IMG/VR virus record: IMGVR_UViG_3300042561_000572
Location: 1 to 64,000 of that record
Length of the DNA stretch: 64,000 bases
DNA from: a virus
Strand: one strand, 5' to 3'
Made by a program: the position numbers and the translations under genes. The notes beneath the pieces are model-generated. The model was not told the DNA's origin and did not search any database. It worked only from the letters and a program-made list of their open reading frames with translations. Below are positions 3,939-58,431 of the stretch, piece by piece (positions within the stretch are counted from its first letter, which is position 1; each line of letters starts with the position of its first letter).

Positions 3939-4022
3939 AAATAAGGTAATCTATTTAAGATTATAGGGTAAATATACACATTGTATAAAGCTATTTATAT
4001 AGCATAGCTCTCTAATTAAGTA

Positions 4023-27371: not shown

Positions 27372-27606
27372 TAATAGACTCTATAATATAAAGGATTGCC
27401 CTTTATATGGCACACAAATAAGAAAGTAACAAAAGTTTAAAATAATAATTAAATAATAATTAAATAATAATTAAAACAAACTTATAGTAATTAAGGAAAA
27501 GAGATAACCTCCTACTAATTACTATAAGTTTGTTGTTTTTATATAATTATAAAAATAACTAATAAAATAACTAATAAAATAACTAATAACATAATTAATA
27601 ATAAAA

Positions 27607-28029
27607 ATGGCAAAGATAACCCAACAAGAAGCAGAGATGACAGAAGACTTACAAAGTCTAGATAAGTTAATAGATTATAGTAAAGATCACATATTAAGAC
27701 AGGATATAGAATTAGATTTAGAAAGTAATGAGAAGGAGAAGACAGAACAAGTATTTAATGATATAAATAGATATACAAAGTTTTACATACCCAACTCATA
27801 TAGTGGCAACAACAAACTATATAACTTATATGTAAAGAAGTTTATAACAAAAAGAGCCAAACAAATATTCAACTCAACAAAGGTAATAATATATGCTCAA
27901 ATTCCTCAAAAACTGCAAGGAACTGTTTATACTTTTAACCCAGGTAAGTATAAAAAGGCACTCAAACGTCTTTTTGATAGACCTGCCAAACATCATTTTA
28001 ACTATAAATCCAAAGATTTTACTTATTAG
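27607..28029 (+). CDS. Hypothetical protein
   Basis: 140-aa ORF. Confidence 0.7.
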   Translation: MAKITQQEAEMTEDLQSLDKLIDYSKDHILRQDIELDLESNEKEKTEQVFNDINRYTKFYIPNSYSGNNKLYNLYVKKFITKRAKQIFNSTKVIIYAQIPQKLQGTVYTFNPGKYKKALKRLFDRPAKHHFNYKSKDFTY

Positions 28030-28228
28030 TAGCCCCTTAGAACAAGCTCAACAGATAAGTGAATTAGAGTTATTATATGGGGATAAATGGTCCAATATAT
28101 ACAAAGAATTAATAACTAAACAAAGGTTAGAAAGCACTTTAAAACAAAGTAAAAATACAAATACAAATACAAAACCAACTAACAATAAATGTTGTTGTAA
28201 TAAGGGAATAACAGATGTTTGCAGCTAG
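27893..28228 (+). CDS. Hypothetical protein (start uncertain)
   Basis: Fills the gap before PAAR; overlaps the upstream ORF. Confidence 0.45.
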   Translation: MLKFLKNCKELFILLTQVSIKRHSNVFLIDLPNIILTINPKILLISSPLEQAQQISELELLYGDKWSNIYKELITKQRLESTLKQSKNTNTNTKPTNNKCCCNKGITDVCS

Positions 28229-28511
28229 AGTATTAGATACATGTTGTGGTTTAATAGGTCCTTCTTGTGGTAGTTGTGGAGGACCTAATTCATATGGATG
28301 TGGAGCTTCTATATGCACAGGATCATCTACATTTATAATAGAAGGATTACCAGTTGCAAGGTTATTAGATTTAACATATGTTGGACCAATAACAAACACT
28401 AAAAATACAATAATTTTAGCTGAAGGATTACCAATATCAACATTACTTGATACAACATCTTGTGGTTTTATAAACAATGTTAGTAATACAACTTTTTTAA
28501 TAATAAGTTAA
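28215..28511 (+). CDS. PAAR-like tail spike tip protein
   Basis: FAARVLD, TGSSTFIIEGLPVARLLD, EGLPISTLLDTTSCG; Cys-rich. Confidence 0.85.
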   Translation: MFAARVLDTCCGLIGPSCGSCGGPNSYGCGASICTGSSTFIIEGLPVARLLDLTYVGPITNTKNTIILAEGLPISTLLDTTSCGFINNVSNTTFLIIS

Positions 28512-28578
28512 TAAATAAGTTAATAAATAAGTTAATAAATAAGTAAATAAATAAGTTAATAAATAAATTAATAAATAA

Positions 28579-29379
28579 ATGACAGTAGTATATTCAAACA
28601 TACCTCAAACAATTTCTTCTTATATACCCCAATTGAATAAAAATGCAATAGTATCAGTACAAACATTAGACAATAATAAACAAATAATATATAGAAGCTT
28701 TAAAGTATATTCATTTCCAAATAGCAAAGCCAAAGATATAAAATTAATACAACTACCATCATATAGTGAAGTATATAAAAGTAGCTCATATTATGAAATA
28801 ACAGAAGAGTTTATAGTAGATACATATTCATCTACACAAGAAGTTATAAATGGTACATTACAGCCTTCTTTTTACACTTGGGAACATACAACAACAACCT
28901 TAAACAATCAAAGACAATTAAGTAATATACAAAAGTTAGTTGTAAGTTGGATACCACCTACAGCATCATTAACACCTCAACAAATAGCACTTTTAACACC
29001 ACAACAAATACAACAATATTTACAACCATTTAACATACAAGTTGGAGATGTATATGGAGTAACAATACCTTCTAATTGTGAAGTAATAAGCCCTACTAAT
29101 TTAGATACATCCTTATTAAAAGATGTAGACATAATTAGAATTAAACCCTTAGCATTAGTGCAATTAAATTTTTCATTTAGAGGAGTAGATGTAGTATCAA
29201 TTGAATTACCCTACAAAATAGTAACAGATAACCCTAAGTTATTATATCCAAAGACTTTAACAGATCCACCAAAAGTACCACCTAATATAACAGGATTAAA
29301 CACTAACTTTCCAACTACAGAAGAAGTAGAATTAAGTAATTATGCAACCAGAAGAAACAGATCCACTTCAATTATTTAG
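28579..29379 (+). CDS. Hypothetical protein, possibly structural
   Basis: 266-aa ORF after PAAR. Confidence 0.7.
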   Translation: MTVVYSNIPQTISSYIPQLNKNAIVSVQTLDNNKQIIYRSFKVYSFPNSKAKDIKLIQLPSYSEVYKSSSYYEITEEFIVDTYSSTQEVINGTLQPSFYTWEHTTTTLNNQRQLSNIQKLVVSWIPPTASLTPQQIALLTPQQIQQYLQPFNIQVGDVYGVTIPSNCEVISPTNLDTSLLKDVDIIRIKPLALVQLNFSFRGVDVVSIELPYKIVTDNPKLLYPKTLTDPPKVPPNITGLNTNFPTTEEVELSNYATRRNRSTSII

Positions 29380-29914
29380 AAATAAATTTAAGTTAGAAGA
29401 AGAGGAAAGATTAAAAAAAGAACAAATTAAAAAAGAAGAAGAAAATACTATAAAGTATAAACCTGAACCAACATATTATCCTTTACAAACTGAAACAATA
29501 GAGCAATTATCATTATTCAAGAACTATAAATTTACAGAGGATAGTAATGTTGAATACTTACCACCTAAATATGATGGTAAGTATAAAAGAAAGAGAAAAG
29601 TATTAGCTTTAATTAATCCTTCTATTTATAGAAATGTATATGCTAAAAAGACATATAAAAATGACAAAAAGGTATCTATACCTATAAACTTATATAATGC
29701 TCTTATAACACTTAATCCTTATCACAACAATCCAAGAGTAATTATATATTTTTTACTTAATTATTACACTCTATCTAAACCTATATATATAAAAGAATTA
29801 AGAGATAGAATAAAAAGTAGAGTAAAAGAAGGGCCTGACTTTGCATTCTTTGTAGAGTTAAAAAACTTATACTATGACATTGAACAAATATTAAAACAAA
29901 CAAGATACTTATAA
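29342..29914 (+). CDS. Hypothetical protein
   Basis: 190-aa ORF. Confidence 0.7.
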   Translation: MQPEETDPLQLFRNKFKLEEEERLKKEQIKKEEENTIKYKPEPTYYPLQTETIEQLSLFKNYKFTEDSNVEYLPPKYDGKYKRKRKVLALINPSIYRNVYAKKTYKNDKKVSIPINLYNALITLNPYHNNPRVIIYFLLNYYTLSKPIYIKELRDRIKSRVKEGPDFAFFVELKNLYYDIEQILKQTRYL

Positions 29915-29915
29915 A

Positions 29916-30281
29916 ATGACAACAACACCAAAGCTAGGATATTTAATAATTAAAACCCCTATAGAAGAGGATGATATATATATAATTAAAGATGCTTTAC
30001 AAGAAGAAAATGATGAGAATATTATCTCCATAGAAGAGCAAGGAAATAAACTTATAATTACAATATCATATGAAGAAATAGAAGAAATAGCTCAAATTGC
30101 CTCTACAATAACTTATACTTGTATAAGCCTTGAAATATACTCAATAAGCATAAAATACTGTGGAAAAGAATCTAACACCAGAACAAATACAAATATTAAA
30201 GGAACATATAATAGTCTATCAACTAACAACAGTAGAAGCACCGCCTTTGATAGTTATCTCAGAAGCTCACTTACTATCTAA
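29916..30281 (+). CDS. Hypothetical protein
   Basis: 121-aa ORF. Confidence 0.6.
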   Translation: MTTTPKLGYLIIKTPIEEDDIYIIKDALQEENDENIISIEEQGNKLIITISYEEIEEIAQIASTITYTCISLEIYSISIKYCGKESNTRTNTNIKGTYNSLSTNNSRSTAFDSYLRSSLTI

Positions 30282-30465
30282 ACATAGACAGTGGAGCTAT
30301 TTAAACTTGCCACAAAACATTGAATTATTTGAGGTAAGAGTAACAGTTTACACACTAGAAGGGGAACATATACAAATGATATCTGAGATATGTAATAAAC
30401 AAACAGTAAAGAATAGATTAAACTATATACCACTTAAACTAAAGGCTCAACTAATAGATTTATAG
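30160..30465 (+). CDS. Hypothetical protein
   Basis: 101-aa ORF, GTG start. Confidence 0.55.
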   Translation: MEKNLTPEQIQILKEHIIVYQLTTVEAPPLIVISEAHLLSKHRQWSYLNLPQNIELFEVRVTVYTLEGEHIQMISEICNKQTVKNRLNYIPLKLKAQLIDL

Positions 30466-31038: not shown

Positions 31039-31243
31039 ATACAACTTTACCTAATTCATAGTCAAATACTCTCCATCTAAGACTTCTTTTAAATTTAAAA
31101 GTATGAAGTCTATTATCATGAGCCATTTCTATAATACTTATGAAGTAATCTAAATCATTAGTTATTTTAAAAGTACCTTTATCAATAACCCAATGATTAT
31201 CTTGTAATGTTTGTATTCTATATCTAATTTTAAACATAAGCAC
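31031..31243 (-). CDS. Hypothetical protein
   Basis: 70-aa ORF. Confidence 0.6.
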   Translation of the reverse strand: MLMFKIRYRIQTLQDNHWVIDKGTFKITNDLDYFISIIEMAHDNRLHTFKFKRSLRWRVFDYELGKVVYE

Positions 31244-34200
31244 TATCTCCTGAAACTAAATAAGTTTCACTTCTACTATCACTACTTAAGTTTTCAAACT
31301 CAACATCTGTTGCCCAAACACCAACTACAACTGGTGGTACATCTAACTTATCAGGCACATCTATAAAGTCACTGGACATTGGATCTATTTCAGCTTCACC
31401 TCTAGCAGCTATAGCATCAGATAAGTTATCTTGCATTTGAGCCAACTTATTATTTAAATTATTATCTCCTTGGTTGAAGTTGCTTTTTAATAAACCAGCA
31501 CTTTGTTGAATACTACTATCAAGCATATTCATAGCTAAAGCACCAACAAATGATCCAATAATAGCACTAACACCACTCTCTGCTATTGGCACATTATGTC
31601 TAAACAAAGGAGCAACAACATTTCTATTAAACAAGTCTGTTAACTTAGGAGTAACATAAGTACCAACTAGACTAAGTGAAGCTTCAGTTGATGCAGCTTT
31701 AGCTAAGTTAGTGGCCCAATCTTCATCAGGATTTCTATAAGCTTTACTTCTAAAGAGAGCACCAGCAGCATTAGCAGCACCTTTACCATGTGGCATGTTA
31801 TAACCCATTAAACTTAAAGTACCACCAATAACACCTGCTGCATCCATACCAGCTTGATCATTAGAAGTACCATATATAGCACCACCAATCATACTAAGTA
31901 AAGCAGGACCAACTATATTAAATATACCATCAGCAGCTTTAACTTTTAACTCTTGTCTAGTAGTACCATCATTACCTCTAGCAACATGTTCAGGTTTAAA
32001 GTAATCTTTACCCTCCTTACTTAAAGTACCTAACAATAAGCCATTTTCAGCTAACAATTCATCTGCTAATGCTTTAGCCTCTGCTTCATTTTTATTTATA
32101 TTTTTATGCTGACCTACAATCTGAGCATGTATCTTATTATAAGTAACATCACTTATTTCACCAGCTTGATTCATAGCAGCAGCAACTTCACTAATAGCTT
32201 GTAATTTAAAGCCTTGTGATGTTTTCTTACTTTGTCTATTAATCAAATCACTAACTAATTCATTCTTTCTTTCAACCTTACCATCAATGGTTACTTCATG
32301 TTGTATTTCAACATGTTTAAGATGCTTATACATTTCTGCCATTTCTTTAGCATTCTCCTCATCACCACTAAAGTTAGACATCATTTGTCCCATAGCATCA
32401 GCATTAGTCAATTTAGGATCATTAACAGCTTTAAACAGTCTGCCCATAACAGAAGCACCTTCCATGCTAAGTTTACCTTGAGCCATTAACCTATAAGCAG
32501 CATTAAACAAATCACCACCTAATAAGCTAGTACCAACCTCTCTAACACTAGAACTTGTAATGTTTCTTTGCATGTCCTTACTAGCTTTATTTAGATGAAC
32601 AAATCTATCTAAACCACTACCATAATCACCCATAAATGTCTTAGTTTGAGTGATACTAGCATGATGACTAAGTACTAATAGAGAAGCAGTTGATAAGCCA
32701 CCACTACTTTGTCTAACCTCATTAAGTTTAGCCATATTATCATCAGTCATAGCCATTCCCATATGTTCATAAAGCATAGTACCAAAAGCACCATTAGAGT
32801 TAGTAATCATCTCTGCTGAGAACCTGTTAACTTGTTCTACTACAGCCTTATCTCTATGTTGTTCTGATACATAACCAACACTATAACCACTGGCTCTTGT
32901 AGAAAATCCAACTCCTCTACTATTAATACCATCTATAGCATTATATAAACCTTCAACTGCTTTAACAGCATCTGCTTTATTCCCCATTGCTAGCTCAGCA
33001 AGAGTTAAACTAACACCTTTACTATCACTACCCTTACCTAAAAAGCCATGTAATCCTTCACTAATAGTCTTTTCCAAAGCTCTATTACTACTAGCTTTAT
33101 CATCAATCTTTAACTTACCATCCTTACCAATTTCTAATGAACCAAAGTTCTTTTCAAAGTTAAACATAGTAGTAATACTTCTAAGACTACTACTAACTTT
33201 AAACTTAATTAAAGAATCTTCATTTACATCAGACCCCATTAAAGCCATTCCAATATCTCTTTGATCTCCAGTTATGTTATAGTCTCCAATGCTGCCATAT
33301 CTACCTTCTCCATCTTTCCTTTCACCAGTAGAACCAGCAGCATGAATCATCTTATTTAAATCCATTAGACCCTTCATACCAGCACCAGGACCAATTTTAG
33401 AAGCCATATCATTAACTAAACTTTGTCTTTTACTCTCATCAGCAGTAGTATATTCTTCTGACATCTTAATAAGTTCAGCCATAACAGAACTAGAATCACC
33501 CTTTAGTTTTATACTATCTCTAAGCATCTGTTGAACTGCTTTATTCCAACCTTGCAATTGTTGTGCTTTATCATATGAAGCTTGTAAGTTAGCCATAAAT
33601 CTAGTGCCTTCATCTGATGGCATAACAACAGAGTTACTAGCATTATTAACTGGCCCATGTTGTCCAGTCATTCTGTTCATCTTCTCAGCAATCTGTGGAC
33701 TATCACCTTCTAATATGTGATACAAACTAACAATAGGAGAATCAGCAACAAAAGTGCCAAGTAAAGTGTTATAAGTCTTACCTAACACATCACTACCAGC
33801 CTCACCTAATGTTTTAGTTAATACATCATATGTTGATTCACCCATACCAATACCTAAGCCAGCATTAATCTTACTGTATAAAACATTACTAGCTTTACTA
33901 GTTGCATCTAACTTACTAAATAGAGTTGTAAAATAAGCCTCTTTATTAACCTCACCTTCAAAGTTATGTAAAGTATTACTGCTTTGTTTTAACTCATCCC
34001 AAGTAAGTCTCATACTGTTTGTTAAAGCTTCTTGTAACTCTTGTTGCATATCAGTATCTTGCAGTTGAGTTGAGTTTAAAGTCATACCAATAGCAGTAAA
34101 GAACTGATTCTTATCAGAACCTGTTTCTATGCTTTTTATCATATCATCTAAAGTATTCTTATCAAAGGTTAAACCAACAGAATGTTTACTGCCCAAAGAA

Positions 34201-37200
34201 GCATTTAACAAGTCCTCAACTCTAGTATTCATTTCACTATTAACACCTTGCATACCACCATATAAGCCTTTACCTTGATCTAACATAGCAGCCATAGAAC
34301 TAACATTAATAGTACCCTGACTTCTAAAACCACCTTCATTACTACCTCTAAAGAATCTACTATCAATACCCATATAAGAGGCCACATCTTTTGCCATCTT
34401 ACTTTGTTTATCAGGAGCATTCATATCCTTTTGCAATGACTTTAAAGCCATAGCATCTTCAAATAATTTAGCTTCTTCATTGGCTAATGTCTTCTCTAAT
34501 TTACTAAGAGCTTCTGTGTCTGATATAGGACCAACAAAAGCTTTCATTGAACTAATTTCTTTCTTTTTATGTTCAATTACAAATCTTCTATCATCAATTG
34601 TATTAATCTTTTCAGTAACCTTATGTAGCAACGTCATATAGTTATCACCATCAAAGTCACCTAAGTTACTAGTTAAGAATGACAAACCACTAAAGATTGA
34701 AATACTCTTACTTCTATCAACATCAAACCTAACAATATTGTCATCTATTGCTAAGTTATCAATCATTTTATTGAATTGATCAACACCTCTAATAGCCATT
34801 AAAGTAGCAAGATGAGATTCAGTTGAACCATATGGTGCTGATCTCCAGCTTTGATTTTGCATGTTATCAAGTTCACTCATACTATTATGAATGTAGCCTA
34901 ATTCTTGTAATGAATAGTGTAAGAACTTAGTACTTAAAGTGCCTCCTTGATCCTTATAAGCAGCCACTTGTTCTTTAATGTTAGTCATATCATTAATCAT
35001 ATAACCAACACTCTTTCTATTAGCAGCTACTATAAAGTGTTCTTGTTCTGACTTAGCATTCTTAGTAGAAGTAGGAGCAAAGCCCTCCATAAAGTTCTCT
35101 AAGTTCTTTATTCTATTGTCAATGTATTCAAGTGTAATCTGTCTAGCAGCTTCAAAGTTACCACCTGTTTTTGGATCAGCAGTGTCATTAATTAGATCTG
35201 TAATACTTTGATGAGTTTGCTTATACACAGTATGTTTACCTCTCATAGCACCCTCTAATTCCTTGCTATAATGATTAACAAGATCAAGGCCCATGCTATA
35301 TCTATTCTTCATAGTACTATTATGAATAAAGTCTCTAATCTCATGATTCTTACCAAGATATATAGCATCTTGGTAACCTCTTTCAGACATCCAATCATTA
35401 ACAGTACCTATTAAACCTTTATATTCTTCTCTCTTCTTAGGATTAAGACTGTTTTCAGCTAACTTTGTATCAGCTTTCAACTTAGCAAATTGCAGATTAG
35501 CTAATACATAACTAGCAACATATGCCTTATCATAAGCACCAGTTACATCTAAGTTTTTCTTAACAGTATTAAATGAATTTTGAGCCTTTTCAACAGCAGC
35601 ATCTAAATCATTTATATCAGTAGTCTTACCAGTTTGTACTTGATTAAGTAAATTATGAGCACCACCAATAACTTCAACACCATTCTGCAATTTTAATGCT
35701 GCCATAGTTGAAATACCTCTAACAAGCATTTGCTTTTGATAATCTAATACAGTACCTAATGACTGATTAAAATCTTGTAGTTGTTTATTACTTTGATAAT
35801 TCTTAAACTTAGTAGACATCTCACTACCAAGTGTTGTATATGTTAAATGTGCAGCAGCAGTAACCTCAAATAGTTTCTTTCTAAGACTAGCAATACCTTC
35901 AGGTGCTCCATACTTCTCATTAACAAATTGGGGCATAACATTCATGTTAGCAGCTAAACTTAAGTTAGGAATACCAGTACTAACATAACCTTCAAACTCA
36001 GTACCATGACCTGCAACTGCTTTTTGCATTAAAGTATCAGAACTAGCTTCTGATATAGCTTGTAATAACTCATCACCAAGATAACCTAATCTAGCAATCA
36101 TATCAGTCTCTTCAGGGCTTAAATTAACATTGAAGGTGGCACTATTCTTTTGTGCTGCTCTAGCTTTAGCAACTTTAATCATTACATCATTTTCAGCAGT
36201 ACCTGGTACAAAATAACTTTGCATATTTAATGTTTTACCAACAATATCACTAACAAAGTCACCAAAAGATGAACCAACTTGATTTAACAAATCAGCACCA
36301 GGCATAAATATATATGTGTTTTGAGTATTACTAAATACAGTATTAACATCTCCAGTCATTTGATCTACAAGTGGTCCACCAACTACTTTTGGCATTAATA
36401 TGTTATAAGTCCTATTACCAGTATCTTGTAACATTTGTAGCTTAGGTTGAGTTATATCTGTACCCATACCTTTACTTTGTTCTAAGTTATAAGTTATGGC
36501 AGACTTTCTTAAAGCTTCAATTATATGTTGACCAACACGCCTTAATTGACCAGCATAATCAGTAAGCTTAGCAGTAGGATCACTATTATGTTTATCCCTA
36601 TTTAACCCATCAACATATGTTGCTTCAGCAAGAGTTAAATCACCGTTATTATAGTAATCTTCTACTTTACTAACATCAAAGTTCTTTTTAATAGATGGTT
36701 TATAAATAGTTCTATATTCTTTTATTAACTCACTACTATTCTCATTAGCATTATAATAAACTCCTAAGAAGTCCCTACCAAAGAAGCCACTCATAGTTAC
36801 TGGATCTAATGCTTGAATTGCTTGTATACTCTTTAAATACTCTGCACTATCAGCCATACCAACACTAATAAGTCCAATCTCTTGAGCAGCAACAACAGTA
36901 CCTAACACATACGCTAAGTTACCCTTATTACCAGTTCTAGTAAACTGTTTAGATTGAGCTTCTAATGGTGCTAACAAGTGTTGCATTTCAGTCTTAGCTC
37001 TTAAGTTCTTACCAAGAGGATCTTTACTAGCAGAAGGTGATATAGACAATGATAATTGCACTGCATAGTTTTGTTGCAAGTATATACCCATTTGATTAGC
37101 AAGTTGTTCTTTCTCCTCATTAGTCATATTAAAAGCATTATCACTACCACCTAAAGCTGCTGCAATTTCCAACAATGGATCATTTAAAACTACACCACTG

Positions 37201-40200
37201 TATGCATCATAATTGCCTGTAACTGCATTAGGTGTAGCAGCTCTTGTTAAAGCTCCTATTTCTGATAGTGGACTTGTCTTTAAAGGACCAATAAAAGAAT
37301 CATCATTAAACTTACCAGTAGTACCATCATTTTGTCTTACCTTCATTTTAAGCATCCAATCAGTAACCATACTAATGTCACCTCTTTGATTCTTAAGCTG
37401 ACCAAACATATCAATAGCAGTTAACATAGCAGAGACACCTCTAGTATATAAGTCACTACTATTAATTACATAACCATCACCACTTCTACTACCAACAGTG
37501 TTAACATAACCTTGTAATAAGCCTGTTAAATCTCCACTATCAGTTAATATGGCATCTCTAATAGATCCTACAAGTTCCTTATTATTCATAATGAATTGTG
37601 GAATACTACCAAAGATATTATCCTTTGATCTAGTAGCTTTACCAGTAAGTACATTCTGCATTTCAGCCATTCTAATAAAGGTGCCAAACTCACCTTTAAT
37701 AGCAGCCTTCTTATAAGCTTTAACATATTGATCATTCAACATTAAAGCATCACCTGGTTTATTCCTTTCATATGAACCATCAGCTATAATGTCTAAACCA
37801 AACTGACTAATCAAAGCTGCTGCTAACATTCTATTAGTCTGTTTAACAAGAGTATTAGCAAGTTTAGTTCTAACTCCATCAGGACCAGTTACATCTTTAG
37901 TAAACAACATAGAAGCATGATCCATAAAGAAGCCACTCTTTAAGTTGTTAGGATTAATCAAGCCATAAACATCAGATACTTGATTCTTTAAAATACTAGC
38001 ACTACTTATACCTGCTTCAACTGTTTTAATAGCCCCCATATCATCTTTAAAAGTAGATTCATAGCCTAATGATTTCATAAAACTACTAAATACACCCTCA
38101 AATTGACTACCTTTTAAAGCAGCACCAACACCTTTAAATAAAAGACCAGCAGCAGTACCTTCATGTCTTCTACCAGAACCAGGTTGTAATATTGGCAAAG
38201 CACTTACTTGGTATTTTATTTCATTAGTGCCTGGACTACCACCTTCAACTCTACCAGCAGTAAGAATAAGATGAACTGAATCTTCACCAGGTCTATTACT
38301 AATTGACTTTTGTTTAACAGATGCTACAGGTTTACCAAATAAACTGAAGTTTTCAATCTGTCCAATTAAATAATCAGCACTACCAGTACCTCCAACATAA
38401 GTTACATTATCTCCACCATCTGCTCTAATTTGAACAACCTTATTAACACTTCTATCATATACAAAAGTATCACCTTCATTAATAACAAGGCCATTCTTTT
38501 GCAACATATCACCACTAAAAGTTACTTCACCAACATGTGTTCTAGCATCTAACATAGAAGCCTTAATACCAGTATTAGTAACAGTTGGCATACCAGCATA
38601 ATGTTGTGTTCTAAATTTAGGATTAGTATAGAAGTGATCACTATAACCACCATTAAGTTGTAATAATACAAACTGTTGTTTATCTCTTCTACCTCCAACA
38701 ACTGAACCAACACTATTAGCAACACTACTATAACTAATCATCTTCATTCTAAACATGTTGTTAAGTATTTGATTAGTATCTTCTCTCTCTGTCTCACTTA
38801 AGTTTAAATCTTTAAACTTATCAAATAATTCTTTTCTCTGCGCTAATACAAAGTTATAAGCACTTTCATTTAGCACTGTTCTAACATCAGTATCAAACAT
38901 AGAACCTAAGTTTACTTCTTCTGCTGTTAGATAATTATGTATAAACTTCTTAGCTTTATCATCAGTTAATAAAGATGTTAATTGAGCTATATTATCTGCA
39001 ATGCCCTTTCTTTGACCTGCATTATATTCTTTTAAACTACCCTTTTCTAATATAGTCTTAGAAGCCTCTTCAGATACTTCATACATTAATCTACTACCAA
39101 GAGCATTCTTAATTCTTTGGTTAATTTGTGCTGGTTTACTAGGATCAAGATTAAATAACATACCTCTTTGATTACCTTTAACATTTAACAATGTCATAAT
39201 CTCATCAACTTCACTGTCTTTAAAGTCACCACTATTAACAAGTTTATCCTTACTAATAAGAACACCAATACCAGTTCCTTCAAGGATATCAATACTATTC
39301 CTATCAGTTGGAAACTTATTTCTAACACCAAATGATTCTAGTTGATAACCTTTCTTATTCTGAGTAGAAACACCTTCAGCAACACCACCTAAATAAAACC
39401 TTTCATTACCTTCATAATCAGTACCAAAACCACTATAAACACTAACATCTCTAGCAAATGTTCTAGCATATTGTAATGTTTGTAGAAGAGGGTTCTTACT
39501 AACATCAGCAATGTTTAGTAAACTCATAGCTCTTTCATTACCAGCATCTAAACCATAATTAATATACTTACTAGCAGGAACACCTGCCGCATAACTAATA
39601 GCCTGGTGAGCTTGTAAATAAGGATCAAATATAGTTTTAGATAACTCTGTCATCTGACTATTTAAATCTCTTTCAGCATTATATTTACTATTAACTCTAA
39701 GAACATCTAAGGTTAAATCTTGATAACCTTCTTGACCTAATAGTTGACCAATAGCATGTATAGCTGTAAAAACATCATCACCACTTTTAGCATTTCTAAT
39801 ATTTTGTATTTGATCTGTTAACTTAATGCCAAACTTTGTACCTTCAACATTAACATTAACATTTAACCTGTTATAAACATCTACACCAGCTAACTGTCTA
39901 GTAGTATCTAAATAACTAATACCTTCAGCATTAAATCTACTTTCCAATGCATTAGCAAGGTCTTTATATCCACCCCTATCAAACAAGTTATTAGATCTAC
40001 CCCTATCAAACAAGTTATTAGAATAAGCTAATCCATCTGTATTTATGCCAACCTTATTATCAGCTAACATGTATCTAGTATCACCCATCAAAGAAATAGC
40101 AAAGTCTAATGCTAAACCTCTTTTAGTATCAGCATCAACACCTATTAACTTACTAGCAGGATTACTAATAGCTTGTTTATAAGCCATCTCACCAATCATA

Positions 40201-43200
40201 GTAGCAAAGATACTAGTAGTATTATCAATACTAGACATCTCAGCAGATTGACCATGTTCTAAAACACCAGGTCTATCCCCAAACTTCCAACTAATCTTTC
40301 CACCAGTATTATTAGTAAAGTTACTGTTATATATTAACTTACCTTCCTTTTGAAAGAACACAGGACCAGGTTGATTAGCAGTACCTTGTAACATACCAAG
40401 AGTATAAGTAAGCCTACTAGTATTAGTGTTTAAACCTAATAACTTACCAGGCATAATAGCAACTTCTAACATAAGAGGAGTGCCAAATCTATCATACTTT
40501 CTAGTAATAGACATAGCATCCCCTAACCCTTTACTCATCTCCCTTAAAGTACTTTCTAACTTTAAAAGATCACCAGTATTAGATTGTCTAGCCCAGTATG
40601 GTAAACCTTCAATGGAGGGTAACAAACCATTATCTAACCTATTACCATAGTTAAGTTGAGCATAAGACATAGTTACAGCCTTATTATTATCTTTTAACTC
40701 ATACATTTCTTCTTCTGCTAATAAAGAATATTCATTACTAAAGCCTAAGTTTAAAGCCTCAATGTTATCTCTAAAGTCTTGGTCATAGCCAGTATTACTT
40801 TCCTTAGCAGCATCAATGAATAACTTTCTATTAACATAAACAGCACCCATTTCATCACTAACATATGGATCATTACCTCCAACACCAAGATACTTATTAT
40901 CAGGTCTAATATCAACACCTAATGAGTTCATACTAAAGTTAGAAGAGTTAGCAGCAGTACCAGCTATTTGCTGAGTATATTTAACATATGTACTACCATC
41001 TTTTCTTGTTGCTGATTCATATCTATAAGCACTAAAAGACTTACTATGTTGTCTAGGAACATCAGCACCAGCCATATTACCACTAGCAATAGCAAGCATT
41101 TGTAATGCAGTTAAGTTCTTACCATCAGTAATATCTAATTGAGCATTAATAAGTTCAACCTTTCTATTTAGTGATTGATTACTCTCTGTTACAGCATTAA
41201 CAAAGCCACTAATAGAGCCACTAAATTCATTATGAAACCTAGCACCAAACCTATCATTTAAATAATTCCAAGTAGGTTCTATGACCTGTTTAGTAAAGTT
41301 ATTAGTATCAACTACAACCTTACTAATACCCATTGCTATCAAACTAAAGTTCTTTCTTTGTATGTCTCTATACAATTCATATCTAACATCTTGTCTTGAT
41401 CTAAACTGACCACTTCCAAGAGTATTGGAACTAAATTTACCCATTTCACCAATCTCTTGACTGGTAGCATCATTAAATCTATTAGCTCTATTATTAGGAT
41501 CACTACCATTAACATCTAAATGATTAACATGTAATAAGTATGCTTGATCAAGCACCATAGTCATACCTAAATCACCAGTATATTTACCCTTTAATTCGTC
41601 TAAACTACTATTCATTTCTCTACCACTTTCAGTGTGTAAATAGTCAACAGTAGCCTTCAATGTATACATAATATCAGTTGCAAACTTAATATTAGATTGA
41701 CTACTTATAGTTGTTATTTGTTGTTTTTGAGCAGCAACAACTTGTTCATACATAAGAGCAGATACAGTCTTCTTATATTTATTAACCTTATTATCATTTA
41801 ACTTTTGAGGATCAAACTTACCTAATAACAAATTAAGTTGTGCTAACCCAGAGAAGTCTTTAAAAGATGTCCAATTATTTAATAGTTCTGGTAACCTGTT
41901 AATATATTCTTGTCTCTTTTTAATTAAATCCTTATTACTATGAAACATGCCTAACATTTCATAGTTGGAGCCAGCTTTAAATATAGAATCACCAACAGGA
42001 CTAGTTAAGTTAATAGAGCCTAACACAGCAACCTGATCTGTTATATAAACCTTTCTATGATGAGCAGGGCCAGCAAGCTTAATGTTAAACACACCAGGAA
42101 CCCCATCTTTACCATTAACAATCTCTTCTGCTTCTTGTCTAGTTTTTTTCTTGCTATTAACAAGTTCATTGATAATAGTTTCTTTTAACTTCTCCATCTT
42201 TGCAACTTCAAGTATATTAGGCCCAAAGATAGCAGCACTAGTACCTTCATCACCTGGAATAGGAGAACCAACAATCATATTAACTTTAAAGCCATAGTTC
42301 TCATTACCTATGATTTCTCTATAGATCTTACTAACAACAACATCACTAATAGCTCTATTTTGATATTGGAAAGTATCAATTGTAATGCTTTCTTTAGCAG
42401 ATTCAAACATAGAAACAAATGGTAATATACCAGGTCTAGTTTGATACTTAACATCATCAATCACTTTAGCTGCTTTTTGTTTATAACTATTGTTAATACT
42501 AGTATCAATAGCTTTAATGTTTCTTCTATTTATACTAACACCACCCTTAGTTAACTCATTAACATAAGACTTACTTCTAACAAAGTCTAAGTCAGTAATA
42601 GTCTTACCAGCTTTACTTCTACTACTATTAAAAGTACCTTCATTAATTGCTCTAAGCTCATCTGCTGAGTTACCATCAACAGGAACAAGACCACTACCAA
42701 ATAGATCAGCATTAACTAATCTCTCTAATGTCTCTTGTCCTCTAGCTTCCATATCTCTAATATTAGAACTAGATTGAACACGACTAAAAGCATTAGCATA
42801 CTGATAGCTTTGATCTAAGTAATAATTATCTTTAGCTTTAGTAGGATCTTCAATGTATAAACCTTTTTTAGCTAAAACATTACCAAATATATTTTCAAAT
42901 ACCACTTGACTAGCATAAGCTTTAGTCTCAGTAGGATCAATTCTATAAGCTTCACCAACTAAGAACTTAAGACTCTTTCTACTATCTAATAAGCTATTAG
43001 AAACATTACTATCAAACTCAGTAAACAGTCTAGTAGTAACAGTTTGACTAAGACCTAATACAAACTTATTAGAGAATGCTTCTCTTTTACCAGTAGTAGT
43101 AACATGTTTAGGATCAAACATACCACCTGATATATCACTAGTCATACCAATAGCATTTTGCCAATCACTATTAGTTGAGCCTAACTCATTAGTAAAGACT

Positions 43201-43337
43201 TCACTGTTATACAAACCATAACCAACAGAAGTTGCAAGAGCACTTCTATTACCTTGTTCTATAAAACCATGAAGACTACTAACAGATTGTCTTCTATGTT
43301 CTAAATGATATTCAGTGTTTGAGAAATAACTTGACAT
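31230..43337 (-). CDS. Giant protein: N-terminal PLD (HKD) domain plus two-barrel RNA polymerase; putative virion RNAP
   Basis: HRKVYITD..VLGSINLT (aa ~427), HSK..NSSNFS (aa ~764), WRSAP and NLGDFDGD (aa ~2894, 34644-34658); Gly/Ala hydrophobic C-terminus. Confidence 0.75.
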   Translation of the reverse strand: MSSYFSNTEYHLEHRRQSVSSLHGFIEQGNRSALATSVGYGLYNSEVFTNELGSTNSDWQNAIGMTSDISGGMFDPKHVTTTGKREAFSNKFVLGLSQTVTTRLFTEFDSNVSNSLLDSRKSLKFLVGEAYRIDPTETKAYASQVVFENIFGNVLAKKGLYIEDPTKAKDNYYLDQSYQYANAFSRVQSSSNIRDMEARGQETLERLVNADLFGSGLVPVDGNSADELRAINEGTFNSSRSKAGKTITDLDFVRSKSYVNELTKGGVSINRRNIKAIDTSINNSYKQKAAKVIDDVKYQTRPGILPFVSMFESAKESITIDTFQYQNRAISDVVVSKIYREIIGNENYGFKVNMIVGSPIPGDEGTSAAIFGPNILEVAKMEKLKETIINELVNSKKKTRQEAEEIVNGKDGVPGVFNIKLAGPAHHRKVYITDQVAVLGSINLTSPVGDSIFKAGSNYEMLGMFHSNKDLIKKRQEYINRLPELLNNWTSFKDFSGLAQLNLLLGKFDPQKLNDNKVNKYKKTVSALMYEQVVAAQKQQITTISSQSNIKFATDIMYTLKATVDYLHTESGREMNSSLDELKGKYTGDLGMTMVLDQAYLLHVNHLDVNGSDPNNRANRFNDATSQEIGEMGKFSSNTLGSGQFRSRQDVRYELYRDIQRKNFSLIAMGISKVVVDTNNFTKQVIEPTWNYLNDRFGARFHNEFSGSISGFVNAVTESNQSLNRKVELINAQLDITDGKNLTALQMLAIASGNMAGADVPRQHSKSFSAYRYESATRKDGSTYVKYTQQIAGTAANSSNFSMNSLGVDIRPDNKYLGVGGNDPYVSDEMGAVYVNRKLFIDAAKESNTGYDQDFRDNIEALNLGFSNEYSLLAEEEMYELKDNNKAVTMSYAQLNYGNRLDNGLLPSIEGLPYWARQSNTGDLLKLESTLREMSKGLGDAMSITRKYDRFGTPLMLEVAIMPGKLLGLNTNTSRLTYTLGMLQGTANQPGPVFFQKEGKLIYNSNFTNNTGGKISWKFGDRPGVLEHGQSAEMSSIDNTTSIFATMIGEMAYKQAISNPASKLIGVDADTKRGLALDFAISLMGDTRYMLADNKVGINTDGLAYSNNLFDRGRSNNLFDRGGYKDLANALESRFNAEGISYLDTTRQLAGVDVYNRLNVNVNVEGTKFGIKLTDQIQNIRNAKSGDDVFTAIHAIGQLLGQEGYQDLTLDVLRVNSKYNAERDLNSQMTELSKTIFDPYLQAHQAISYAAGVPASKYINYGLDAGNERAMSLLNIADVSKNPLLQTLQYARTFARDVSVYSGFGTDYEGNERFYLGGVAEGVSTQNKKGYQLESFGVRNKFPTDRNSIDILEGTGIGVLISKDKLVNSGDFKDSEVDEIMTLLNVKGNQRGMLFNLDPSKPAQINQRIKNALGSRLMYEVSEEASKTILEKGSLKEYNAGQRKGIADNIAQLTSLLTDDKAKKFIHNYLTAEEVNLGSMFDTDVRTVLNESAYNFVLAQRKELFDKFKDLNLSETEREDTNQILNNMFRMKMISYSSVANSVGSVVGGRRDKQQFVLLQLNGGYSDHFYTNPKFRTQHYAGMPTVTNTGIKASMLDARTHVGEVTFSGDMLQKNGLVINEGDTFVYDRSVNKVVQIRADGGDNVTYVGGTGSADYLIGQIENFSLFGKPVASVKQKSISNRPGEDSVHLILTAGRVEGGSPGTNEIKYQVSALPILQPGSGRRHEGTAAGLLFKGVGAALKGSQFEGVFSSFMKSLGYESTFKDDMGAIKTVEAGISSASILKNQVSDVYGLINPNNLKSGFFMDHASMLFTKDVTGPDGVRTKLANTLVKQTNRMLAAALISQFGLDIIADGSYERNKPGDALMLNDQYVKAYKKAAIKGEFGTFIRMAEMQNVLTGKATRSKDNIFGSIPQFIMNNKELVGSIRDAILTDSGDLTGLLQGYVNTVGSRSGDGYVINSSDLYTRGVSAMLTAIDMFGQLKNQRGDISMVTDWMLKMKVRQNDGTTGKFNDDSFIGPLKTSPLSEIGALTRAATPNAVTGNYDAYSGVVLNDPLLEIAAALGGSDNAFNMTNEEKEQLANQMGIYLQQNYAVQLSLSISPSASKDPLGKNLRAKTEMQHLLAPLEAQSKQFTRTGNKGNLAYVLGTVVAAQEIGLISVGMADSAEYLKSIQAIQALDPVTMSGFFGRDFLGVYYNANENSSELIKEYRTIYKPSIKKNFDVSKVEDYYNNGDLTLAEATYVDGLNRDKHNSDPTAKLTDYAGQLRRVGQHIIEALRKSAITYNLEQSKGMGTDITQPKLQMLQDTGNRTYNILMPKVVGGPLVDQMTGDVNTVFSNTQNTYIFMPGADLLNQVGSSFGDFVSDIVGKTLNMQSYFVPGTAENDVMIKVAKARAAQKNSATFNVNLSPEETDMIARLGYLGDELLQAISEASSDTLMQKAVAGHGTEFEGYVSTGIPNLSLAANMNVMPQFVNEKYGAPEGIASLRKKLFEVTAAAHLTYTTLGSEMSTKFKNYQSNKQLQDFNQSLGTVLDYQKQMLVRGISTMAALKLQNGVEVIGGAHNLLNQVQTGKTTDINDLDAAVEKAQNSFNTVKKNLDVTGAYDKAYVASYVLANLQFAKLKADTKLAENSLNPKKREEYKGLIGTVNDWMSERGYQDAIYLGKNHEIRDFIHNSTMKNRYSMGLDLVNHYSKELEGAMRGKHTVYKQTHQSITDLINDTADPKTGGNFEAARQITLEYIDNRIKNLENFMEGFAPTSTKNAKSEQEHFIVAANRKSVGYMINDMTNIKEQVAAYKDQGGTLSTKFLHYSLQELGYIHNSMSELDNMQNQSWRSAPYGSTESHLATLMAIRGVDQFNKMIDNLAIDDNIVRFDVDRSKSISIFSGLSFLTSNLGDFDGDNYMTLLHKVTEKINTIDDRRFVIEHKKKEISSMKAFVGPISDTEALSKLEKTLANEEAKLFEDAMALKSLQKDMNAPDKQSKMAKDVASYMGIDSRFFRGSNEGGFRSQGTINVSSMAAMLDQGKGLYGGMQGVNSEMNTRVEDLLNASLGSKHSVGLTFDKNTLDDMIKSIETGSDKNQFFTAIGMTLNSTQLQDTDMQQELQEALTNSMRLTWDELKQSSNTLHNFEGEVNKEAYFTTLFSKLDATSKASNVLYSKINAGLGIGMGESTYDVLTKTLGEAGSDVLGKTYNTLLGTFVADSPIVSLYHILEGDSPQIAEKMNRMTGQHGPVNNASNSVVMPSDEGTRFMANLQASYDKAQQLQGWNKAVQQMLRDSIKLKGDSSSVMAELIKMSEEYTTADESKRQSLVNDMASKIGPGAGMKGLMDLNKMIHAAGSTGERKDGEGRYGSIGDYNITGDQRDIGMALMGSDVNEDSLIKFKVSSSLRSITTMFNFEKNFGSLEIGKDGKLKIDDKASSNRALEKTISEGLHGFLGKGSDSKGVSLTLAELAMGNKADAVKAVEGLYNAIDGINSRGVGFSTRASGYSVGYVSEQHRDKAVVEQVNRFSAEMITNSNGAFGTMLYEHMGMAMTDDNMAKLNEVRQSSGGLSTASLLVLSHHASITQTKTFMGDYGSGLDRFVHLNKASKDMQRNITSSSVREVGTSLLGGDLFNAAYRLMAQGKLSMEGASVMGRLFKAVNDPKLTNADAMGQMMSNFSGDEENAKEMAEMYKHLKHVEIQHEVTIDGKVERKNELVSDLINRQSKKTSQGFKLQAISEVAAAMNQAGEISDVTYNKIHAQIVGQHKNINKNEAEAKALADELLAENGLLLGTLSKEGKDYFKPEHVARGNDGTTRQELKVKAADGIFNIVGPALLSMIGGAIYGTSNDQAGMDAAGVIGGTLSLMGYNMPHGKGAANAAGALFRSKAYRNPDEDWATNLAKAASTEASLSLVGTYVTPKLTDLFNRNVVAPLFRHNVPIAESGVSAIIGSFVGALAMNMLDSSIQQSAGLLKSNFNQGDNNLNNKLAQMQDNLSDAIAARGEAEIDPMSSDFIDVPDKLDVPPVVVGVWATDVEFENLSSDSRSETYLVSGDSAYV

Positions 43338-43504: not shown

Positions 43505-43906
43505 ATGTCCACAGCATCAACAGTATTTGAAATTCCTCTTCCTTCTGGTAAAGTTATCTCTTTTAGACTTCCTACATACAGAGATAGACAAGCAGCAGTT
43601 AAGAGATTTAGACAACAACAAAATGAAGTAGGTTGGTCAATTGAAGAGTTTTTAGCATTTGGTATGCTTGAATTTGTAGATGGACTGCCTTTGCAAGCTG
43701 GTCTTGACCCTATTGATCAAGTATCTGAATGGTCATTGAAAGATGTAAATATTTATCTAGAAGTATTTATGCCCTTAGTATTTCCTGATGATGTTGCTAA
43801 GCAAAGAGCACAAGACATGGTTAAGGCACTTCTTGAGGGAAAGTCAGTAGTGAAACAAGTGGCCTCACCTATTACTTCAGCCCCTACTACAGCTATAACC
43901 GCATAA
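43505..43906 (+). CDS. Tail assembly chaperone (gpG-like)
   Basis: LPSGKVISFRLPTYRD pattern; GGGAAAG slippery site near 3' end. Confidence 0.75.
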   Translation: MSTASTVFEIPLPSGKVISFRLPTYRDRQAAVKRFRQQQNEVGWSIEEFLAFGMLEFVDGLPLQAGLDPIDQVSEWSLKDVNIYLEVFMPLVFPDDVAKQRAQDMVKALLEGKSVVKQVASPITSAPTTAITA

Positions 43907-44334
43907 CAGATGTTGCAATATCGTTGGCAGTATTATATAAACTGCCAATGGTAACAACTAGAAAGTGTATATATAACTATGACTCTAACTATCCTGAAAA
44001 GTATTATAGAGACATACCAATATCAGAAGATTTAATATTATTAAGAGAGTTAACGTTTGAGGGTTATGCCAATCACTTCATAGAAGCATACAACTTAAAT
44101 AACTACATACAAATTAGTGGCACTATACAGATACCCTATGGTAATGACTGGCTAGACTTAGATGAAGTTGAGAGAAGAGCATTTGAAATTGTAGTTAACA
44201 AAGTAAACATTGAAAGACACAAGGCAGCTCAAGCAGAAAAAGAAGAACTAAAGAAAAACCTTCAATCTTCAACTCAAAATCATTCTAGGTCAATGTTTGA
44301 TGGTATACCAATGTCTAGTATAAGTATGAGATAA
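43837..44334 (+). CDS. -1 frameshift extension of the tail chaperone (gpT-like)
   Basis: -1 frame is open from G GGA AAG (43837-43843) to 44334; otherwise only a weak TTG or internal ATG start. Confidence 0.75.
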   Translation, partial: GKVSSETSGLTYYFSPYYSYNRITDVAISLAVLYKLPMVTTRKCIYNYDSNYPEKYYRDIPISEDLILLRELTFEGYANHFIEAYNLNNYIQISGTIQIPYGNDWLDLDEVERRAFEIVVNKVNIERHKAAQAEKEELKKNLQSSTQNHSRSMFDGIPMSSISMR

Positions 44335-44343
44335 CAACACTAA

Positions 44344-45813
44344 ATGGCAACAAATAATACAAAAGCAACTACATCAACTAAGAAGGAGGAGACTAAACAA
44401 AAAGCATCATCTCCTCCTTCTAGTGGAGAAATAAACTTCTCTAAATACAAAACAAATCCACCATTACAAGTGTTTGGAGATACTTCTAACAAAGTAAGAC
44501 CAAACACTTACAAACAATTAGGTAGAGCCACCTCATTTGTAAGTAATGGTGATTCTTTGTATGTAAATACAGGGCCACATCAATATGCTTTAGCAACATG
44601 GGACTATGCTAGAAAGAATGAACCAATAATATCTGATGGTTTAGATAAGATAGTATTATCAGTTTTGGCTAAGATAGGTTCCTATAATCATCCTAATCCA
44701 GACATAAGAAAGTTTATAAAAGCTAACTTAAAACATAAGATTAGACACTGGATTGAAAATATAACATATTCTATGTTGTGGTCAGGTAAGTCTGTATCAG
44801 AGATAATATGGGAAAAGAAGTGGGATGGTGACACCCCTCAGTTATGGGTAAAAGATTTAATAAACTATCATACATCTCAAGTTATATTAAGATTAAATAA
44901 CTATGGTACTTTAACACATGGAGAACAAGTGTTAAATAGCCAATTTAATACAGGTGTTTGGGTTCCTAGACCTATTTTAACTGAAGATAAAAAGATGTAT
45001 AAAGTTGATAGAAACAACACAGGATCACATATAAGACTTGCTAAAGACAAGTTAATTATAGCTACATATAAAGATGAAGGTAATAATCCTCATGGCACAC
45101 CAGCTTTATATGCAGCTATTCAATGGTCTTTATACAAAGCAGCTTTTGTTGATATGTATTCTATAGCATTAGACAGATATGGAACACCTTTAATGTATTT
45201 TATAGTGCCAGCCACACAAACAACTGAAGACATGGAAGAAGTTGATGGTACTATTAGAAAAAAGATGTTTAGAGAAGCATTACAAGATGAACTACAAGAC
45301 TTAAGAAGTGGTTCTGTTTTAATACTTGAAAGACAAGGAAACAAAGATGCACCAGAACCAAAAGTAGAGTCATTAACAACTGGTAATAACTTTGGAGATT
45401 CATTTATAACAGCCATTGATAAGTGTGATCAAAACATGTTACATGCTATGGGAATACCTAACTTACTTATAAAGAATCAAGACTTAGGATTAGGTTCTGG
45501 TGGAACAACTGAAAAGCAAGTTGAAATGTTTGAAATGTCTATTGAACAGATAGCTATAAAAGTAAGTGAAGTATTAATTGATCAACTTATAAAGACTTTA
45601 ATAACTTATAACTTTTCACCAAAACTAGTAGATCATGCTGATAACTATGGAGAATTTATAATCAAACCAATAAGATATGTTGATTATAAAGTAATGGCAG
45701 AAAGTGCAAAGATATTAACAGAAGCAGGAGTTATAGCACCATTAGTAAGTGAAATGGATAGAAAATTTATTAGAAATCAACTAGGAATACCTAATGATCA
45801 TGAGGATGTATAA
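44344..45813 (+). CDS. Portal protein (DUF935/Mu gp29-like)
   Basis: 489 aa; GKSVSEIIW, NPHGTPAL, LDRYGTP, IRNQLGIP. Confidence 0.85.
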   Translation: MATNNTKATTSTKKEETKQKASSPPSSGEINFSKYKTNPPLQVFGDTSNKVRPNTYKQLGRATSFVSNGDSLYVNTGPHQYALATWDYARKNEPIISDGLDKIVLSVLAKIGSYNHPNPDIRKFIKANLKHKIRHWIENITYSMLWSGKSVSEIIWEKKWDGDTPQLWVKDLINYHTSQVILRLNNYGTLTHGEQVLNSQFNTGVWVPRPILTEDKKMYKVDRNNTGSHIRLAKDKLIIATYKDEGNNPHGTPALYAAIQWSLYKAAFVDMYSIALDRYGTPLMYFIVPATQTTEDMEEVDGTIRKKMFREALQDELQDLRSGSVLILERQGNKDAPEPKVESLTTGNNFGDSFITAIDKCDQNMLHAMGIPNLLIKNQDLGLGSGGTTEKQVEMFEMSIEQIAIKVSEVLIDQLIKTLITYNFSPKLVDHADNYGEFIIKPIRYVDYKVMAESAKILTEAGVIAPLVSEMDRKFIRNQLGIPNDHEDV

Positions 45814-57773: not shown

Positions 57774-58431
57774 AGTATGTATCAGTATTGCTAAAGGTAT
57801 TGCAAGTCATCCTCTTATACTTGCAAATCTAATAGTTAATCCAATAACAAATGAACCTGTACCAATTTCAAGTTATAGATTATATGGTGGATTAGAGACA
57901 TCATCTAACACTTTAACATGTGCTGTATATCCAGCACCTATATCATCATTAACTGCAAAATCAGCATCATCACAAACAGCATCTATTGTATATAAACCTT
58001 ACAACTTAGGTAGTGAAACTGATGAAGTAATGTCAATGATACATATTAGTTTTTACTTTAATAGTGTTACCTCTGGCTCTCAATCAACCCCTTTAATTCT
58101 AGAAAATATGCCTACACAATTACCTATTAGTAATGATGAAATAGTAATAGAAAATAGCACAAATATAGAATTATATACAGATGTAGCTTTACATATATTA
58201 AGTCAATGTATTGAGTTATTAAGACTAATAATATATGAAATTAAAATAGATGACTTAAAGACTAAAGTAGAACTACTAAGATCATCATTTATTGGAGGTG
58301 AGTGGGAAAAAGATCCATACTTTAAAGAGGTAATGACAGCTTGTTTAGTTACCACTTATCTACCAAAAGCAGCAAAAACAAATCCAATAATACAAGATAT
58401 AAAATATAACATAAACAATGAGAATTCCTGA
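57757..58431 (+). CDS. Putative tail completion protein
   Basis: 224 aa, immediately before sheath; call is positional. Confidence 0.5.
   Translation: MHGVDKVCISIAKGIASHPLILANLIVNPITNEPVPISSYRLYGGLETSSNTLTCAVYPAPISSLTAKSASSQTASIVYKPYNLGSETDEVMSMIHISFYFNSVTSGSQSTPLILENMPTQLPISNDEIVIENSTNIELYTDVALHILSQCIELLRLIIYEIKIDDLKTKVELLRSSFIGGEWEKDPYFKEVMTACLVTTYLPKAAKTNPIIQDIKYNINNENS

Follow-up and report, generated by a model that had tools for sequence, protein, structure and literature searches.

A giant protein of Ma-LMM01-like phages joins a phospholipase D-type domain to a probable single-chain RNA polymerase

The DNA analysed here (the window) comprised positions 1 to 64,000 of the IMG/VR virus record IMGVR_UViG_3300042561_000572, a record of 94,155 bp with a CheckV completeness of 56%. 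Its minus strand carried at 31230-43337 a single unbroken open reading frame (ORF) of 4035 codons, whose product probably represents a new lineage of giant, virion-borne RNA polymerase (RNAP). The protein probably contains a two-barrel polymerase module. The full model, a delivered enzyme in which a phospholipase D (PLD) domain, a single-chain polymerase and membrane segments are virion-borne together, was given a probability of about 0.6. An earlier note on the same DNA had placed two PLD-type motifs, a polymerase motif and a hydrophobic C-terminus in this one ORF, and all were found there. The features of the giant ORF, with residues numbered in amino acids (aa), were as follows:

31230..43337, minus strand: giant ORF, 4035 aa; member of PHROG 31006, the Ma-LMM01 gp080 family, function unknown
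40908..42440, minus strand: two-HKD PLD-superfamily domain, about aa 300-810; matches to PLDc_2 (PF13091) and to our own hidden Markov model (HMM)
42009..42059, minus strand: HKD half-site 1, H427-x-K429-x4-D ... G-S-x-N443; H427, K429 and N443 invariant
40938..41048, minus strand: HKD half-site 2, R-Q-H764-x-K766 ... S798-x-N800, with no Asp; H764, K766, S798 and N800 invariant
36993..39290, minus strand: beta/Rpb2-like module, aa 1350-2115, hybrid-binding/barrel region by predicted-fold match
38619..38651, minus strand: G-x-Y-S-D1567 ... N-P motif, candidate beta-side Mg-B aspartate (cf. GYN-x-E-D of beta/Rpb2)
38127..38168, minus strand: G-x-G-R-R1724-x-E-G ... F-K1735-G-V, candidate basic pair of the beta-side barrel
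37917..37955, minus strand: N-P-x-N-L-K1800-S ... H1807 motif, resembling N-P-L-G-V-P-S-R-M of beta (putative equivalence)
33468..34940, minus strand: beta-prime-like region, aa 2800-3290, the block with the highest conservation in the family; its profile finds 108 representatives
34827..34844, minus strand: R2832-S-A-P2835-x-G (cf. N-R-A-P-T-L-H of beta-prime)
34644..34664, minus strand: L-G-D2894-F-D2896-G-D2898, candidate Mg-A site
33663..33839, minus strand: long helix, aa 3167-3225, with invariant G3178..N3190..P3201; bridge-helix candidate
31803..31931, minus strand: C-terminal Gly/Ala-rich hydrophobic segments 1-2, aa 3803-3845; Kyte-Doolittle 1.5-1.6 over 19 residues
31509..31592, minus strand: C-terminal hydrophobic segment 3, aa 3916-3943

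Profile matching placed the protein in a family with at least 108 giant members, among them gp080 of the cultured Microcystis phage Ma-LMM01. The phrog_31006 profile matched it with an E-value of 2.7e-48; this profile has 3562 positions, the same as the length of Ma-LMM01 gp080, which is annotated as a 'hypothetical protein'. A word search returned 22 giant homologues, and collection scans found 21 viral loci, 14 metagenomic loci and one locus in a metagenome-assembled genome (MAG). The profile of aa 2800-3290, searched against 1.84 billion representatives, matched 108 proteins (86 with E<=1e-10), nearly all of them 3000-5400 aa long. With our own HMMs of three blocks, the order PLD, beta-like, beta-prime-like was recovered in 57 representatives and in Ma-LMM01 gp080, which all three HMMs matched with E<=1e-132. 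Misassembly of the PLD part, raised by the earlier note as a possible flaw, was excluded because the architecture recurred in more than 50 independent assemblies and in the gp080 of an isolate genome. About 48 distant representatives matched the beta-prime-like profile only, nearly all of them carrying D-x-D-G-D and R-x-G-x-P motifs.

Conservation was read from an alignment of 19 sequences with identity down to 20%; the motifs are not a product of chance. Invariant positions included H427, K429, N443, H764, K766, S798 and N800 in the PLD domain, and R2832, P2835, D2894, D2896, G2897 and D2898 in the beta-prime-like region. Further invariant clusters were G1563/D1567/N1572, R1724/K1735, K1800/H1807, G3178...N3190 and R3273/D3274/K3277/K3279. 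The pattern D-[FYW..]-D-G-D was present in 105 of 108 collected giant proteins of at least 2800 aa.

The first line of evidence for a polymerase was the predicted fold of the beta-like half, which the earlier note had not located. A template-free AlphaFold2 model of aa 1350-2300, built with an alignment of 19 relatives, had a predicted template modelling score (pTM) of 0.62 and a beta-rich core at aa 1556-1825. Searched with Foldseek against 350,542 PDB chains, the best 50 rows for this model were all second-largest subunits of RNAPs, led by vaccinia Rpo132 (E 4.8e-4, probability 1.0) and Thermus beta (9.9e-4). Other matches included the Pol I/III/IV/V, archaeal, mycobacterial, cyanobacterial, African swine fever virus (ASFV), phiKZ and AR9 enzymes. 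An independent aligner, VIA-align, likewise ranked RNAP beta-type chains alone at the top among 48,161 chains. In the model, a beta-type barrel/hybrid-binding fold is shown at aa 1350-2115.

Several invariant motifs fell within this half. G1563 and D1567 were each kept in 58 of 58 relatives, and by its motif likeness alone D1567 is a candidate for the beta-side Mg-B aspartate, the counterpart of Rpb2 D837. R1724 and K1735 (59 of 59 relatives) both lay inside the fold-matched region and are candidate equivalents of beta K1065/K1073. K1800 was kept in all 59 relatives and H1807 in 58 of them. These beta-side equivalences are leads and not alignments, because hhalign gave a probability of 0.3% for the beta-like block against beta. 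In one member of the distant half of the family, sub-threshold RNase_T/RNase_H-like matches occurred at aa 1513-1652.

The second line of evidence was the catalytic loop of the beta-prime-like half. DFDGD occupies aa 2894-2898, about 1000 residues downstream of the beta-like module, with R2832-S-A-P2835 62 residues upstream of it. The four residues D, D, G and D of D-x-D-G-D were kept in 111 of 111 wider relatives, and an Arg lay 55-65 residues upstream of the loop in 110 of 110. The Pro after this Arg stood at +3 in the near clade and at +4 in the far clade, while the canonical position is +2 (R-x-P). When the family was compared with cyanobacterial beta-prime by hhalign, the DFDGD block alone aligned, with N-A-D-F-D-G-D (P 0.001); a relaxed run placed R-S-x-P near N-R-A-P of cyanobacterial beta-prime, without significance. 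About 280 aa past DFDGD, the AlphaFold2 model held a 59-residue helix with an invariant Gly-rich cluster, which from this position may be the bridge helix.

Eight invariant residues define the two-barrel superfamily according to Ruprich-Robert and Thuriaux (PMC2919709): one barrel carries three loop aspartates, an Arg and a Pro, the other an Asp with two basic residues. The reference positions are D481/D483/D485, R446 and P448 of Rpb1, D837 and K979/K987 of Rpb2, and R738/K743 of QDE-1 (PMC2919709). Invariant candidates for all eight were found here in the right order, namely D1567; R1724 and K1735; R2832 and P2835; and D2894/D2896/D2898. At the level of single residues, the Asp triad alone is secure, and catalysis by a two-barrel site is predicted.

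A number of results weigh against the polymerase assignment. No sequence-profile method ties the family to known polymerases: the full-length family profile matched nothing among PDB sequences, and neither 19 beta-like segments nor 20 beta-prime-like segments, searched against Pfam at E up to 10, matched a polymerase family; the hhalign probability for the beta-like block counts on the same side. A search of the contig with PF00623 gave no candidate either. Sequence profiles fail likewise for the polymerases of P23-45 and the crAss phages and, according to the authors of the P23-45 study, for most two-barrel families (PMC10770324). The AlphaFold2 model of aa 2650-3400 had a pTM of 0.38 and was mostly helical, with a predicted local distance difference test (pLDDT) score below 50 over aa 2822-2899. 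Foldseek and VIA-align found only generic coiled-coil or helical-hairpin matches for it, and in the ESM Atlas aa 2790-3300 met only tape-measure-like clusters below threshold.

The earlier note had read R-x-x-P and DFDGD as a polymerase centre and had proposed domain-wise structure prediction as a check. The motifs are present and invariant, and prediction returned a beta/Rpb2-like fold at aa 1350-2115; the double-psi beta-barrel at DFDGD was not obtained, and it stays a putative one because the pLDDT of the model is below 50 there. Of the three-domain call made by that note (PLD, RNAP and membrane segments), the PLD part stood, and the polymerase part was supported by the beta-like fold and the invariant triad and lacked the DFDGD barrel.

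The PLD domain lies ahead of both polymerase halves, and membership of aa 300-810 in the PLD superfamily can be taken as established from motifs and profiles. Half-site 1 reads HRKVYITD...GSIN from H427, which is the full motif H-x-K-x4-D-x6-G-S-x-N that the earlier note had seen. Half-site 2 (QHSKSF...SSN, H764-N800) is degenerate and lies 337 residues further on. Half-site 2 keeps the His, Lys, Ser and Asn, so a complete active site of the PLD type could be formed within a single chain, and the earlier suggestion of an intramolecular pair is supported by the conserved motifs together with Pfam PLDc_2. With PLDc_2 the whole protein scored 25 bits, just short of the cut-off of 27; aa 250-860 reached 29 bits, and 15 of 19 family members matched when each was scanned separately. 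Our own HMM of the block was present in 57 representatives. One member of the distant half of the family had a weak PLDc_2 match.

Against solved structures, the PLD profile gave weak matches to the PLD4 exonuclease (E 0.02) and the poxvirus virion nicking-joining enzyme (E 0.15), which span only about 20 residues around the motif. In a language-model comparison the block had as neighbours small viral PLDc_2 proteins and nucleases of the NgoFVII type, none of which reached the lead threshold of 0.9. With low certainty, these likenesses suggest a nucleic-acid phosphodiesterase rather than a lipase.

Two to three moderately hydrophobic, Gly/Ala-rich segments lie about 230 and about 110 residues before the C-terminus (aa 3803-3845 and 3916-3943), in agreement with the hydrophobic C-terminus described earlier. 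Their distance to the C-terminus is kept in distant homologues and in Ma-LMM01 gp080.

The structural genes identify the source phage as a Ma-LMM01-like myovirus. The giant gene sits in the head module, divergent from ORFs that lead to the portal, protease and major capsid genes. To its left is a small plus-strand block (26214-30465), followed by a long minus-strand arm (713-25403). Other features of the window and of the contig beyond it were:

14200-18840, minus strand: 1546-aa ORF, phrog_30979, with N-E-G-D-T-D-G-D at aa 1166-1173
43505-43906 and 43924-44334, plus strand: two small ORFs of 133 and 136 aa between the giant gene and the portal
44344-45813: portal
49875-51104: protease-like gene
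51146-52465: major capsid protein (phrog_30785, E 1e-120)
52599-53456, plus strand: homing endonuclease (phrog_314, E 2e-25) with a GIY-YIG type N-terminus and a weak HNH-type C-terminus
58418-61180: tail sheath
contig 63140-66004: 954-aa ORF, tape-measure candidate (phrog_34291, function unknown)
contig 67730-68890: 386-aa protein with an M23-type metallopeptidase C-terminus

The second small ORF (43924-44334) is in the -1 frame relative to the first, the portal follows directly, and a GAG-GGA-AAG heptamer occurs at 43834-43842. The earlier note had taken the giant gene to be divergent from tail chaperone genes, which is not supported: the small ORFs at 43505-44334 matched no chaperone family and nothing in Pfam, only phrog_32670 (function unknown), and they lead into the portal, a placement that is unusual for chaperones. 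A real-looking tail module of sheath, tube, small ORFs and the 954-aa ORF starts about 15 kb further on. There, the order is sheath, tube-like gene, two small ORFs, the 954-aa ORF, a baseplate-like protein and the M23-peptidase protein. A tape-measure context for the giant gene is likewise not supported, since the tail module has its own candidate in the canonical position.

The 1546-aa ORF of the minus-strand arm is a candidate for a second, non-virion two-barrel polymerase, by analogy with P23-45. Its motif is kept as N-E-G-D-A-D-G-D in Ma-LMM01 gp064, with an overall identity of 25%, and gp064 is the gene immediately upstream of the early cluster gp063-gp054. The protein had no Pfam or PDB sequence match, and BLASTP and HMM comparisons with the giant protein revealed no relation beyond the DxDGD motif.

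Expression timing was available for the Ma-LMM01 homologue. In the transcriptome of that phage, gp080 falls into class B5 (middle), with log2 counts of 0 at both 0 h and 1 h that rise to 7.3 by 3 h and 8.5 by 6 h, and the early genes gp054-gp063 already reach 7.3-7.9 at 1 h (PMC5780444 and its supplement). A role of gp080 in early transcription therefore needs a pre-made, delivered protein. Packaging and ejection would be consistent with this silence at 1 h, with the portal-side gene and with the C-terminal segments.

Under the delivered-enzyme model, the giant protein would be synthesised in the middle-to-late phase, packaged into the head beside the portal and ejected through the tail along with the DNA. 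The C-terminal segments would anchor it in the membrane or pass it through. Its two polymerase halves, beta-like (aa 1350-2115) and beta-prime-like (aa 2800-3290) and joined by a linker of about 700 residues, would fold back on each other into a two-barrel active site as in a fused beta-beta-prime enzyme, which would set D2894/D2896/D2898 opposite D1567, R1724 and K1735. The first phage genes would then be transcribed without the host polymerase, and the PLD domain may cut or process host or phage nucleic acid. A wider and more tentative proposal, which we hold as somewhat short of an even chance, is that Ma-LMM01-like freshwater phages carry a deep, hitherto unrecognised lineage of single-chain beta-beta-prime RNAP, delivered from the capsid in one protein with a PLD nuclease and a module for membrane insertion, with the smaller DxDGD enzyme (gp064 / 14200-18840) taking over afterwards, so that the early programme would be independent of the host polymerase.

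The best surviving alternative, although an unlikely one, is a true phage two-barrel RNAP that stays out of the virion. It would be synthesised once infection has begun and would transcribe middle or late genes in the cell, and its PLD and hydrophobic portions would have other intracellular roles, such as host DNA degradation or membrane tethering. The middle expression class of gp080 fits such an enzyme equally, packaging has no proteomic support (a literature search found no virion proteome of any family member), and the early promoters of Ma-LMM01 look sigma-70-like. Against it, the gene adjoins the portal in the head module, and the size, C-terminal hydrophobic segments and single-chain build of the protein parallel those of known delivered polymerases. 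The smaller DxDGD protein (14200-18840) is also the better candidate for an intracellular enzyme.

Distinctly unlikely is an ejection or internal head protein on a polymerase-derived scaffold, with channel formation and PLD cleavage as its main job and either no nucleotidyl transfer or another kind (RNA-dependent synthesis, priming or PolD-like DNA synthesis). The protein is mostly helical and looks tape-measure- or ejection-like to a language model (0.87, below the 0.9 threshold), Foldseek gave weak, non-significant rows to T7 core proteins, and the two-barrel fold serves RNA-dependent RNA polymerases and PolD as well (PMC2919709). Set against this, the Mg triad and basic residues are wholly invariant over 59-111 very divergent sequences, which points to a catalytic role. 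By fold, the protein matched DNA-dependent multisubunit enzymes and not QDE-1 or PolD, and the invariant K1800 would stand at the place of Rpb2-R1020 in DNA-dependent enzymes.

It is very unlikely that the RNAP reading is wrong altogether, with family-specific motifs in an unrelated giant structural protein and a beta-like match that is a modelling artefact. Two independent aligners ranked RNAP beta-type chains alone at the top (of 350,542 and 48,161 chains) for a model made without templates, and a beta-like block together with an invariant DFDGD in one protein is not expected from chance.

Tape measures run to about 0.15 nm per residue. A role of the giant protein as the tail tape measure, alone or in addition, on the pattern of Thermus phage P23-45, is hardly credible: the gp96 precedent, the C-terminal hydrophobic segments, the weak language-model likeness to tape-measure clusters and the GAG-GGA-AAG heptamer in the two small upstream ORFs speak for it, but its gene lies on the opposite strand from the sheath-tube genes and about 15 kb off, the 954-aa ORF holds the canonical position, and 4035 residues would mean a tail of about 600 nm.

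Giant delivered polymerases have precedents in N4 gp50, crAss gp66 and P23-45 gp96 (PMC10770324; bioRxiv 10.1101/2020.03.07.982082; PMC13434306). P23-45 gp96 is likewise a giant single polypeptide (5002 aa) with a DFDGD loop, membrane segments and almost no sequence likeness to known polymerases; it is delivered with the virion, and its phage also encodes a paralogue that is not in the virion (PMC10770324). Delivery and a candidate second enzyme are proposed here too. In gp96, however, the polymerase occupies the N-terminal 1200 residues and the remainder is tape measure and metallopeptidase, whereas the polymerase halves of the giant ORF lie mid-protein over about 1900 residues, with the PLD domain ahead, in a head-module gene accompanied by a separate tape-measure candidate. 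Profile comparison of the giant family with PDB sequences gave no match to gp96.

The crAss-like phi14:2 gp66 is a large virion protein with two barrels per chain, beta-like first and beta-prime-like next, then a bridge helix, an order that the candidate barrels and helix here would share; adjacent virion proteins are sometimes fused into one huge polyprotein (bioRxiv 10.1101/2020.03.07.982082). It differs in being QDE-1-like; its barrels are linked by about 140 residues and its loop reads DFDID. In the giant ORF, about 1000 residues would separate the barrels, the loop has the canonical DFDGD sequence, and the fold matches of the beta-like half are to multisubunit enzymes rather than QDE-1. 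N4 gp50 (about 3500 aa) is a giant head-packaged, ejected polymerase with flanking ejection domains (PMC13434306), to which the packaging proposed here would correspond; its fold is that of a T7-like right-hand polymerase (PMC7824862), and the likeness is functional only.

Multisubunit RNAPs, including those of phiKZ and AR9, share the beta hybrid-binding/barrel fold and the DFDGD loop and, at the level of motifs, GYN-x-ED, GRHGNKG, NPLGVPSRM and NRAPTLH. Unlike them, the giant ORF is one chain instead of two to five, has an altered Arg-Pro spacing, is not known to have alpha or omega partners and has no Pfam or HMM-HMM similarity to them. PLD3/PLD4 exonucleases and the poxvirus nicking-joining enzyme, the latter virion-packaged, also carry two HKD half-sites per chain; in the giant ORF the half-sites are 337 residues apart, the second is without the Asp, and the match covers about 20 residues (E 0.02-0.15). 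The literature searches found no paper on this family, on a PLD-RNAP fusion or on an RNAP in Ma-LMM01-type phages, in line with the earlier note, whose author knew of no described PLD-RNAP fusion.

If correct, the assignment would add a lineage of giant virion-delivered RNAPs with a fold nearer to the cellular beta/beta-prime enzymes than that of crAss gp66 or YonO, and would bear on the evolution of the two-subunit core. The fusion of a PLD nuclease to a polymerase suggests that cutting may be coupled to transcription at DNA entry. According to the papers on Ma-LMM01 and MaMV-DH01, these phages have no polymerase of their own and depend on that of the host, and the published view of Ma-LMM01-type Microcystis phages as wholly host sigma-70-dependent would need revision (PMC5780444, PMC9927357). 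Ma-LMM01-like phages include bloom-relevant Microcystis phages, and the family is experimentally accessible through its cultured member, Ma-LMM01.

Megablast of the giant-gene region against phage genomes gave no match. DNA of the window was found again at >=99% identity in other lake-water runs. A relative about 93% identical occurred in aquatic metatranscriptome libraries, with contigs 90-95% alike across most of the giant gene; it is possibly transcribed in nature, although these contigs were not counted as proof of expression because such libraries can contain DNA. The contigs showed several small in-frame-looking indel clusters near 33628-33674.

The genome-collection scan for relatives returned one MAG contig only, CAZGDE010000231.1 (11 kb). 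Genomes of the same phylum, which we take to be Cyanobacteriota, mostly carry a split rpoC1 of about 570-660 aa. The contig hints at a cyanobacterial host for that relative, and spurious binning is possible. Elsewhere in the window, the homing endonuclease at 52599-53456 is inserted directly past the major capsid gene. Positions 1-52 consist of about 10 TTAAA repeats at the contig start; the other end showed no matching terminal repeat.

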